A stretch of DNA of 64,000 nucleotides from Escherichia phage OliverMaurmann_Bas86, in sequence record PQ850622.1; one strand, written 5' to 3'. The notes under the pieces were generated by a model. It was not told the DNA's origin, searched no databases, and saw nothing but the letters and a program-made list of their open reading frames with translations. Positions 52,480 through 53,018 of this stretch are shown here, in pieces. How positions within the stretch are numbered: position 1 is the first letter of the stretch; every line of letters begins with the position of its first letter. The translations under genes were made by a program, and so were the position numbers.

Positions 52480-52689
52480 TTAACTAAAGATACGAATGGC
52501 TACATCGTGACCAATATGACCGGGAACTTTATGCTGCTCTATTTTCAGACAGCGCTTACAGATACGAGATACACGAGACTCTTTTCTCTCGACTGGAGTG
52601 TCTTTTGCGTGAGTGATTTGAAGGTTTTCAGTGATCACCCACTCATGTTTACACTCAGAATCTTCGGGCTTTTTCTTACGAAAGAACAT
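52480..52689 (-). CDS. small zinc-ribbon-like protein (HxW...CKxC family)
   Basis: Start at internal ATG 52689 preceded by GAGGTG: MFFRKKKPEDSECKHEW...SRICKRC. Confidence 0.3.
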   Translation of the reverse strand: MFFRKKKPEDSECKHEWVITENLQITHAKDTPVERKESRVSRICKRCLKIEQHKVPGHIGHDVAIRIFS

Positions 52690-52696
52690 AACACCT

Positions 52697-52862
52697 CTTA
52701 GATCAGATCTGTTTTCTTGTGCAGACCACACACTTTACAGCGAGAGTAGATACGCAACCCTTGTCGCTCTCTGTCAGTAAGTTTATTTGTGATCGTCAGT
52801 TCATAAGTAGAAAGATCTTCCCACTCATGGAAATGAAATAGACGTTTGAACCATTTGATCAT
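52697..52862 (-). pseudogene. frameshifted copy of the small zinc-ribbon family gene
   Basis: ATG 52862 gives MIKWFKRLFHFHEW... which stops after 42 codons; the C-terminal ...CKVCG... motif continues in another frame to 52697. Confidence 0.3.
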
Positions 52863-52871
52863 AATGATTCC

Positions 52872-53018
52872 TTAGATTATGTCACGACGACTAACTTCAC
52901 CACACACCTTACACTGGATAACGTAACGTACGCCCCTTGCATCTCCACAGATCAGCGGACGGGTGTCGATAATCTTCCAATCATGACAATGGAAGACACG
53001 CTTTAGCCACTTAATCAT
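52872..53018 (-). CDS. small zinc-ribbon protein (48 aa, below ORF-track cutoff)
   Basis: Hand-translated MIKWLKRVFHCHDWKIIDTRPLICGDARGVRYVIQCKVCGEVSRRDII. Confidence 0.35.
   Translation of the reverse strand: MIKWLKRVFHCHDWKIIDTRPLICGDARGVRYVIQCKVCGEVSRRDII

Follow-up and report, generated by a model that had tools for sequence, protein, structure and literature searches.

The stretch of DNA analysed here, a 64,000-nucleotide window from the genome of Escherichia phage OliverMaurmann_Bas86 (PQ850622.1), carries four small open reading frames whose products share a pair of putative metal-binding knuckles. Translation confirmed an earlier sequence-only reading of their arrangement, namely that three of them (copies 1 to 3) are adjacent on the minus strand and the fourth (copy 4) lies apart on the plus strand. 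Around the small-gene cluster the window shares 92-98% identity with members of the subfamily Gordonclarkvirinae that infect Escherichia, among them Phage NC-B, SU7, ECBP2, Bas87 and the UKE3 type, with phiEco32 more distant; the window thus belongs to a Gordonclarkvirinae (phiEco32/Kuravirus-like) podophage of E. coli. The genes and their neighbours, with the PHROG to which each protein was assigned by HMM, are as follows.

53020-53277, minus strand: gene upstream of copy 1, conserved, 85 aa, phrog_1972
52872-53018, minus strand: copy 1, a 48-aa protein, MIKWLKRVFHCHDWKIIDTRPLICGDARGVRYVIQCKVCGEVSRRDII; phrog_8294, E 1.4e-16
52698-52862, minus strand: copy 2, an intact 54-aa protein, MIKWFKRLFHFHEWEDLSTYELTITNKLTDRERQGLRIYSRCKVCGLHKKTDLI; phrog_8294, E 1.2e-17
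52480-52689, minus strand: copy 3, 69 aa, with CKHEW...CKRC; phrog_13426, E 3.7e-37
52393-52470, minus strand: tRNA-Arg (anticodon TCT), found by ARAGORN and by Rfam RF00005 at 67.5 bits
62203-62367, plus strand: copy 4, a 54-aa protein, MWKIKLLLKQFKCNHEYYPIRISRGDERLHTYYKSTWRCADCGKVRNSKWVDRP; phrog_7696, E 1.6e-11

The minus-strand genes are tightly packed, with 1 nt between the upstream gene and copy 1, 9 nt between copies 1 and 2, 8 nt between copies 2 and 3, and 9 nt between copy 3 and the tRNA-Arg gene, which was the sole match in an Rfam scan of 51500-54000. The ATG of copy 1 lies 1 nt past the stop codon of the 53020-53277 gene. Copy 2 is preceded by a Shine-Dalgarno sequence, AAGGA at 52869-52873, that ends 6 nt before its ATG and shares bases with the copy 1 stop codon; copy 3 has a Shine-Dalgarno-like AAGAGG immediately before its ATG, and copy 4 an AAGGA 8 nt before its own. 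All four predicted proteins are small (6-8 kDa) and basic (pI 9.4-9.8), and none of the genomes examined carries a broken version of any copy. Values of pN/pS, pooled pairwise among the relatives whose loci were compared, are 0.15 for copy 1, 0.33 for copy 2, 0.11 for copy 3 and 0.20 for copy 4, the last from two sequences only.

The middle gene, copy 2, had been read as broken, with a stop after 42 codons and its CKVCG motif continuing in another frame, and was accordingly proposed to be a decaying paralogue, a sequencing error or a site of programmed ribosomal frameshifting. No such interruption exists. Copy 2 is a single uninterrupted minus-strand frame of 54 codons followed by a stop, with CKVCG in frame, and the remaining two frames across it are full of stops. 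Its codons 41-44 read CGC TGT AAA GTG, and a TAA that is out of frame spans codons 42-43 (TG-TAA-A); the reported stop is therefore a one-base slip in reading by hand translation, and nothing else in the sequence favours a disruption. The finding of a single frame, which the sequence-only reading had itself named as grounds for giving up the idea, was thus already to be had from the deposited sequence. At least seven phages that were sequenced independently (PAS59, EK010, TH43, Bas87, NC-B, SU7 and Bas88) encode this protein with 100% identity, copy 2 as a query gives a full-length, single-piece match in 90 of 90 related records, and the records of Bas87, UKE3, CHD5UKE1, MLP3 and ECBP2 annotate the gene as a single CDS. 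Pseudogene, sequencing error and programmed frameshift are therefore all rejected, and the chance that any of them applies is negligible: a frameshift is ruled out because the whole product, CKVCG included, is encoded in one frame, and decay because that frame is undisrupted and, to judge from the overall pN/pS, is under purifying selection.

Only slightly less improbable is that the four frames are open by chance rather than genes, a suspicion prompted by their very short length and by the absence of annotation for individual copies in some reference records; against it stand the pattern [CH]xH[EDNQ][WYF]-(12-45)-CxxC, which the six-frame translation of the window contains four times and no more, once in each copy, and which is seen in none of 100 shuffles, as well as the low pN/pS in these very frames (0.11-0.33), the Shine-Dalgarno sequences, the strong PHROG matches and the 99 clusters of homologues described below.

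The right-hand, leftward-transcribed block of phiEco32 belongs to the experimentally determined early class of that phage; most genes of the block have no known function, and host takeover is its presumed role (PMC8948821, PMC9965538). Copies 1-3 lie within a block of small minus-strand genes that matches the phiEco32 early block, in a position orthologous to phi32_107. Near-consensus sigma-70-like sites are found upstream of them on the minus strand at 61328-61301, 59103-59076 and 58779-58751, and their placement, in a right-end block read leftward from host-type promoters upstream, is that of the early (sigma-70-dependent) class of phiEco32. By analogy with the timing established in that phage, copies 1-3 are probably made early in infection, and since they and tRNA-Arg lie within 1-9 nt of one another in this block, they probably share one early transcript. 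The promoter consensus of the phage sigma factor gp36, TAATGTATA, shows no enrichment, and no instance adjoins the family genes. Hairpins resembling intrinsic terminators are about 2.7-fold enriched in 51000-64000 (24 found versus 8.9 expected); strong ones on the minus strand lie at 56910-56883, 55415-55396 and 53600-53579, and copy 1 is about 560 nt downstream of the last of these.

The tRNA-Arg gene is a conserved landmark, beside which zinc-ribbon-type genes sit in all relatives examined. Copies 1 and 2 are 44% identical to each other and both match phrog_8294 from end to end (profile positions 1-56 of 56), which at the level of sequence marks them as clear tandem paralogues. A single family gene, 46-56% identical to copies 1 and 2, lies directly upstream of tRNA-Arg in phiEco32, IMEP8 and VTCCBPA_211. 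The phiEco32 gene, phi32_107, is the nearest point of comparison: it resembles copies 1 and 2 in sequence (46-48% identity) and in its position upstream of tRNA-Arg, but in place of the two genes found here phiEco32 has this one alone, and it lacks copy 3. Copies 1 and 2 would descend from a single gp107-like gene directly upstream of tRNA-Arg, such as these phiEco32-type relatives possess, and duplication of that gene, followed by divergence and by later losses, is the simplest history. SU7 is without copy 1, NJ01 is without copy 2, and two copies are found in about 30 of 90 records. Orthologues of copy 1 are intact in eight genomes, and among relatives its product occurs in 48-aa and 53-aa variants, set apart by a hairpin indel. 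Both copies 1 and 2 are kept by selection. The stretch from the 53020-53277 gene to tRNA-Arg (52393-53277) is a variable island that holds one, two or three family genes in different relatives, and in CHD5UKE1 about 450 nt of extra sequence lie between copy 3 and tRNA-Arg. Word-indexed homologue searches with the three copies returned only one to five near-identical matches each, with no names or context.

A wider view of the copy 1/2 family came from a profile search of 1.84 billion representative proteins, which returned 99 clusters at E<=1e-3, nearly all of them stand-alone proteins of 47-66 aa and almost all from metagenomes; ten distant members are all metagenome proteins without names. 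Of the 93 homologues from this search, 92 match phrog_8294. The family signature can be written M..WLKRLF-[H/C]xH.WE ... G.RY.L.CK.CG..KK.DLI, and in an alignment of 93 sequences the best-conserved columns are H10 (89%), H12 (99%), W14 (90%) and G35 (88%), together with C42 (99%), C45 (100%) and G46 (95%) of the second knuckle. The four ligands expected of a zinc ribbon, [H/C]10, H12, C42 and C45, are thus kept at 89-100% across the 93 sequences, and the four-ligand pattern is found in all four window copies as well. One exceptional match, P0063 (852 aa, metagenome), is hit seven times by the C-terminal knuckle region, in repeated ...C.CG... units, and is most likely an unrelated repeat protein with nothing but the knuckle in common.

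The AlphaFold2 model of copy 2 (pLDDT 79.5) consists of a helix at residues 2-8 followed by strands at 14-25, 32-42 and 48-53, the three strands forming an antiparallel arrangement with the HxH and CxxC elements at strand ends. In prediction, then, the layout of copy 2 is that of a zinc ribbon, the sheet included. Among predicted viral structures, those closest to it belong to other small phage proteins, likewise uncharacterised, and its weak structural neighbours include, recurrently, the DNA-binding zinc ribbon of NrdR. The hairpin between the knuckles is the changeable part of the protein: positions 23-34 are the most variable in the 93-sequence alignment, and the indels are located there. 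Within copy 2, pN/pS is 0.13 in the scaffold outside the hairpin tip versus 0.98 in hairpin codons 23-34, a contrast suggestive of a small binding module that is made early on. The variation at the tip, however, comes down to essentially two haplotype blocks (TITNKLTDRER versus KVTHRLAGGER), and a single recombination event could account for it in place of repeated diversification.

Whether all four copies belong to one family is a separate question. The earlier proposal of a tandem zinc-ribbon family with a distant fourth copy holds for copies 1 and 2, probably extends to copy 4, and extends only doubtfully to copy 3. When each group was represented by a small profile, the comparison of copies 1/2 with copy 4 (E 2.7) and that of copy 3 with copy 4 (hhalign P 0.05) were not significant. 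Against the broad copy 1/2 profile, built from the 99 representatives of the HMMER scan of 1.84 billion proteins, the copy 4 group scores an hhalign probability of 91% (P 1e-6), and copy 3 aligns over the whole core, with an hmmsearch E of 2.3e-4 among 984 ORF segments of the window and an hhalign probability of 24%. In addition, 13 of the 93 family members also match phrog_7696, the PHROG of copy 4; Clostridium phage PhiS63 gp34, which tblastn relates to copy 4, reaches 31.8 bits with the family profile and so bridges both groups; and first knuckles of the Cys-x-His type occur inside the copy 1/2 family itself. From the broad-profile scores, the PHROG cross-matches and the knuckle variants it follows that copy 4 is a probable distant member of the copy 1/2 family and copy 3 a possible one, both being linked to it at the profile level only.

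The alternative is that only copies 1 and 2 are paralogues and that copy 3, possibly copy 4 too, is unrelated and has converged on the CxH...CxxC pattern. This is unlikely, though by no means far-fetched. The proteins fall into three different PHROGs, the small-group profiles do not significantly match each other, and none of the 93 family members matches phrog_13426, the PHROG of copy 3, which moreover possesses an extra conserved C-terminal segment, GHI..A..IF, and a separate distribution in Vequintavirinae. Convergence is harder to reconcile with the alignment of copy 3 to the broad profile over its whole core, with the standing of the copy 4 group against that profile and its cross-matches to phrog_7696, with the bridging PhiS63 protein, and with the Cys-x-His knuckles within the copy 1/2 family. 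Predicted structure also argues against it: the model of copy 3, of low confidence (pLDDT 61.7) and built on a shallow alignment, has the strand order of copy 2 with a C-terminal helix, and a 78-aa protein of Cronobacter phage CR3 that appears among the structural neighbours of copy 2 has the same length as CR3 gp051, the 78-aa copy 3 homologue of that phage.

Copy 3 differs from the others in where it is found. Among Gordonclarkvirinae, 47 records contain it; a further 27 records, mostly of Vequintavirinae myophages, carry homologues of about 45% identity, which occur in phages of Cronobacter, Enterobacter, Pectobacterium, Escherichia and Salmonella; an IMG/VR locus search with copy 3 found NJ01 and ECBP2 only. 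Its occurrence in Vequintavirinae as well as Gordonclarkvirinae points to exchange between unrelated phage groups. The Vequintavirinae homologues sit among other small hypothetical genes.

Past the genome end, copy 4 is the first gene to be met, and its counterpart opens the left end in essentially all relatives; about 92 Gordonclarkvirinae records give a full-length match (at 253-414 in phiEco32). The 1-kb segment at 61474-62473 adjoins this genome end, the SU7 record beginning at about window position 61864, and contains 8 of the 19 ATGGGT[AT] motifs of the window, all on the plus strand and flanking copy 4; shuffles of the whole 64 kb give a mean of 8 motifs versus the 19 observed. A 17-nt unit, ATGGGTATGCCTTTATG, also occurs four times at 62353-62467, around and just after the stop codon of copy 4. 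These repeats could be iterons, packaging sites or binding sites of a regulator.

Comparison with known families places the copies near, and outside, several well-described groups. In the classical zinc ribbon, exemplified by the N-terminal domain of NrdR, by bL32 and by archaeal RpoP, two knuckles lie at the ends of a beta-hairpin, and the copies are predicted to resemble it in this respect as well as in their third strand and CxxCG second knuckle. Four metal ligands are also found in free-standing phage proteins of 50-70 aa such as Ogr of P2 and Delta of P4, Com of Mu, and Lar of the Rac prophage, which show that such modules are able to act as specific binders or regulators. Their ligand pattern is CxxC...CxxC or CxxxxC, and proteins of the Ogr type act late in infection; the copies differ from them in the ligand pattern, and copies 1-3 differ from the Ogr type in lying in an early block. 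Pfam and NCBIfam scans detected no sequence similarity between the four copies and Ogr/Delta, Com or Lar, and returned nothing at threshold. The only Pfam models to score were DUF7848 (E 0.0066) and HalOD2 (E 0.019), in a short local match around the CxxCG knuckle; membership of either was rejected, the scores being 17.0 bits versus a gathering threshold of 24.5 and 15.3 versus 27, with only one or two of the 93 family members matching. Searches of PDB sequences with single sequences and with the profile gave no significant relative, and literature searches found no functional work on copies 1-4. Because phrog_8294, phrog_13426 and phrog_7696 carry no function, membership in them names the proteins without explaining them.

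What these proteins might do can be approached from their predicted build. Each gene, intact and separately translated, would encode a short helix at the N-terminus and, after it, a zinc-ribbon-like module, in which one metal knuckle, [His/Cys]-x-His-(E/D)-Trp, and the other, Cys-x-x-Cys-Gly, are joined by a long beta-hairpin. The four metal ligands would hold a rigid scaffold from which the variable hairpin tip would bind a macromolecule of host or phage, protein or nucleic acid, and duplication would yield two binding specificities. On this view the copies would be metal-stabilised binding modules of early infection, with the target set by the hairpin tip. Taken as a whole, this interpretation, namely intact and separate genes for zinc-ribbon-like modules, with copies 1 and 2 as selected paralogues, an early transcript, and binding through the tip, is favoured by the balance of the evidence, if only by a modest measure.

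The main competing interpretation is that the proteins are sequence- or structure-specific nucleic-acid binders, that is, small transcriptional or translational regulators like the phage zinc-finger regulators. Many zinc ribbons bind nucleic acids, and the basic charge of all four proteins, together with the NrdR-like structural matches, keeps nucleic-acid binding alive as the main rival. Copy 4, which lies inside the ATGGGT[AT] cluster, might on this account act on the repeats that surround it at the genome end. The repeats are linked to copy 4 by adjacency only, however; in the Pfam and NCBIfam scans neither Ogr/Delta nor Com, nor indeed any DNA-binding family, showed homology to them; and a protein of 48-54 aa with one small sheet offers little surface for specific DNA recognition unless it is oligomeric. 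A role of this kind is therefore to be taken seriously, although the odds are clearly against it.

A more far-reaching version of the preferred reading, in which the variable tip of a metal-held module is the binding surface, is that the copy 1/2 family represents previously unrecognised minimal His2Cys2 or CysHisCys2 zinc-ribbon binders with a hypervariable tip, which phages would duplicate and diversify so as to neutralise, early in infection, host factors or defence systems. This must be considered improbable, a little more so than nucleic-acid binding. High resistance to tested defence systems has been reported for Gordonclarkvirinae (PMC11990801), and if the idea were true, the binder reading would fit that resistance (PMC11990801).

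In the absence of the reported frameshift, the locus is therefore an ordinary one, a set of small early phage ORFans, and the databases already contain the same or almost the same genes, entered as hypothetical proteins and sorted into PHROGs. What remains of use is a compact signature that defines an uncharacterised, stand-alone phage family outside Pfam, evidence that the hairpin tip is the variable part of the copy 1/2 family, and the recognition that several reference records (phiEco32, SU7 and ECBP2) miss or misplace these genes. Thus, in phiEco32 the copy 4 orthologue (253-417 of locus L018) is unannotated, and the overlapping phi32_1 (296-496) is annotated in another frame; in SU7 both the copy 4 orthologue (341-505 of locus L005) and copy 2 (2697-2861 of locus L001) are unannotated; and in ECBP2 (locus L012) copy 1 (1045-1191) is unannotated, while copy 3 (1374-1583) is annotated with a truncated 5' end. 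Elsewhere in the window, in the middle-gene region, another short Cys-rich ORF on the minus strand (30703-30885, 61 aa) has the pattern ...CTRCG...CPCCGVCEYCC..., which differs from that of the four copies, and may encode a further small metal-binding protein.
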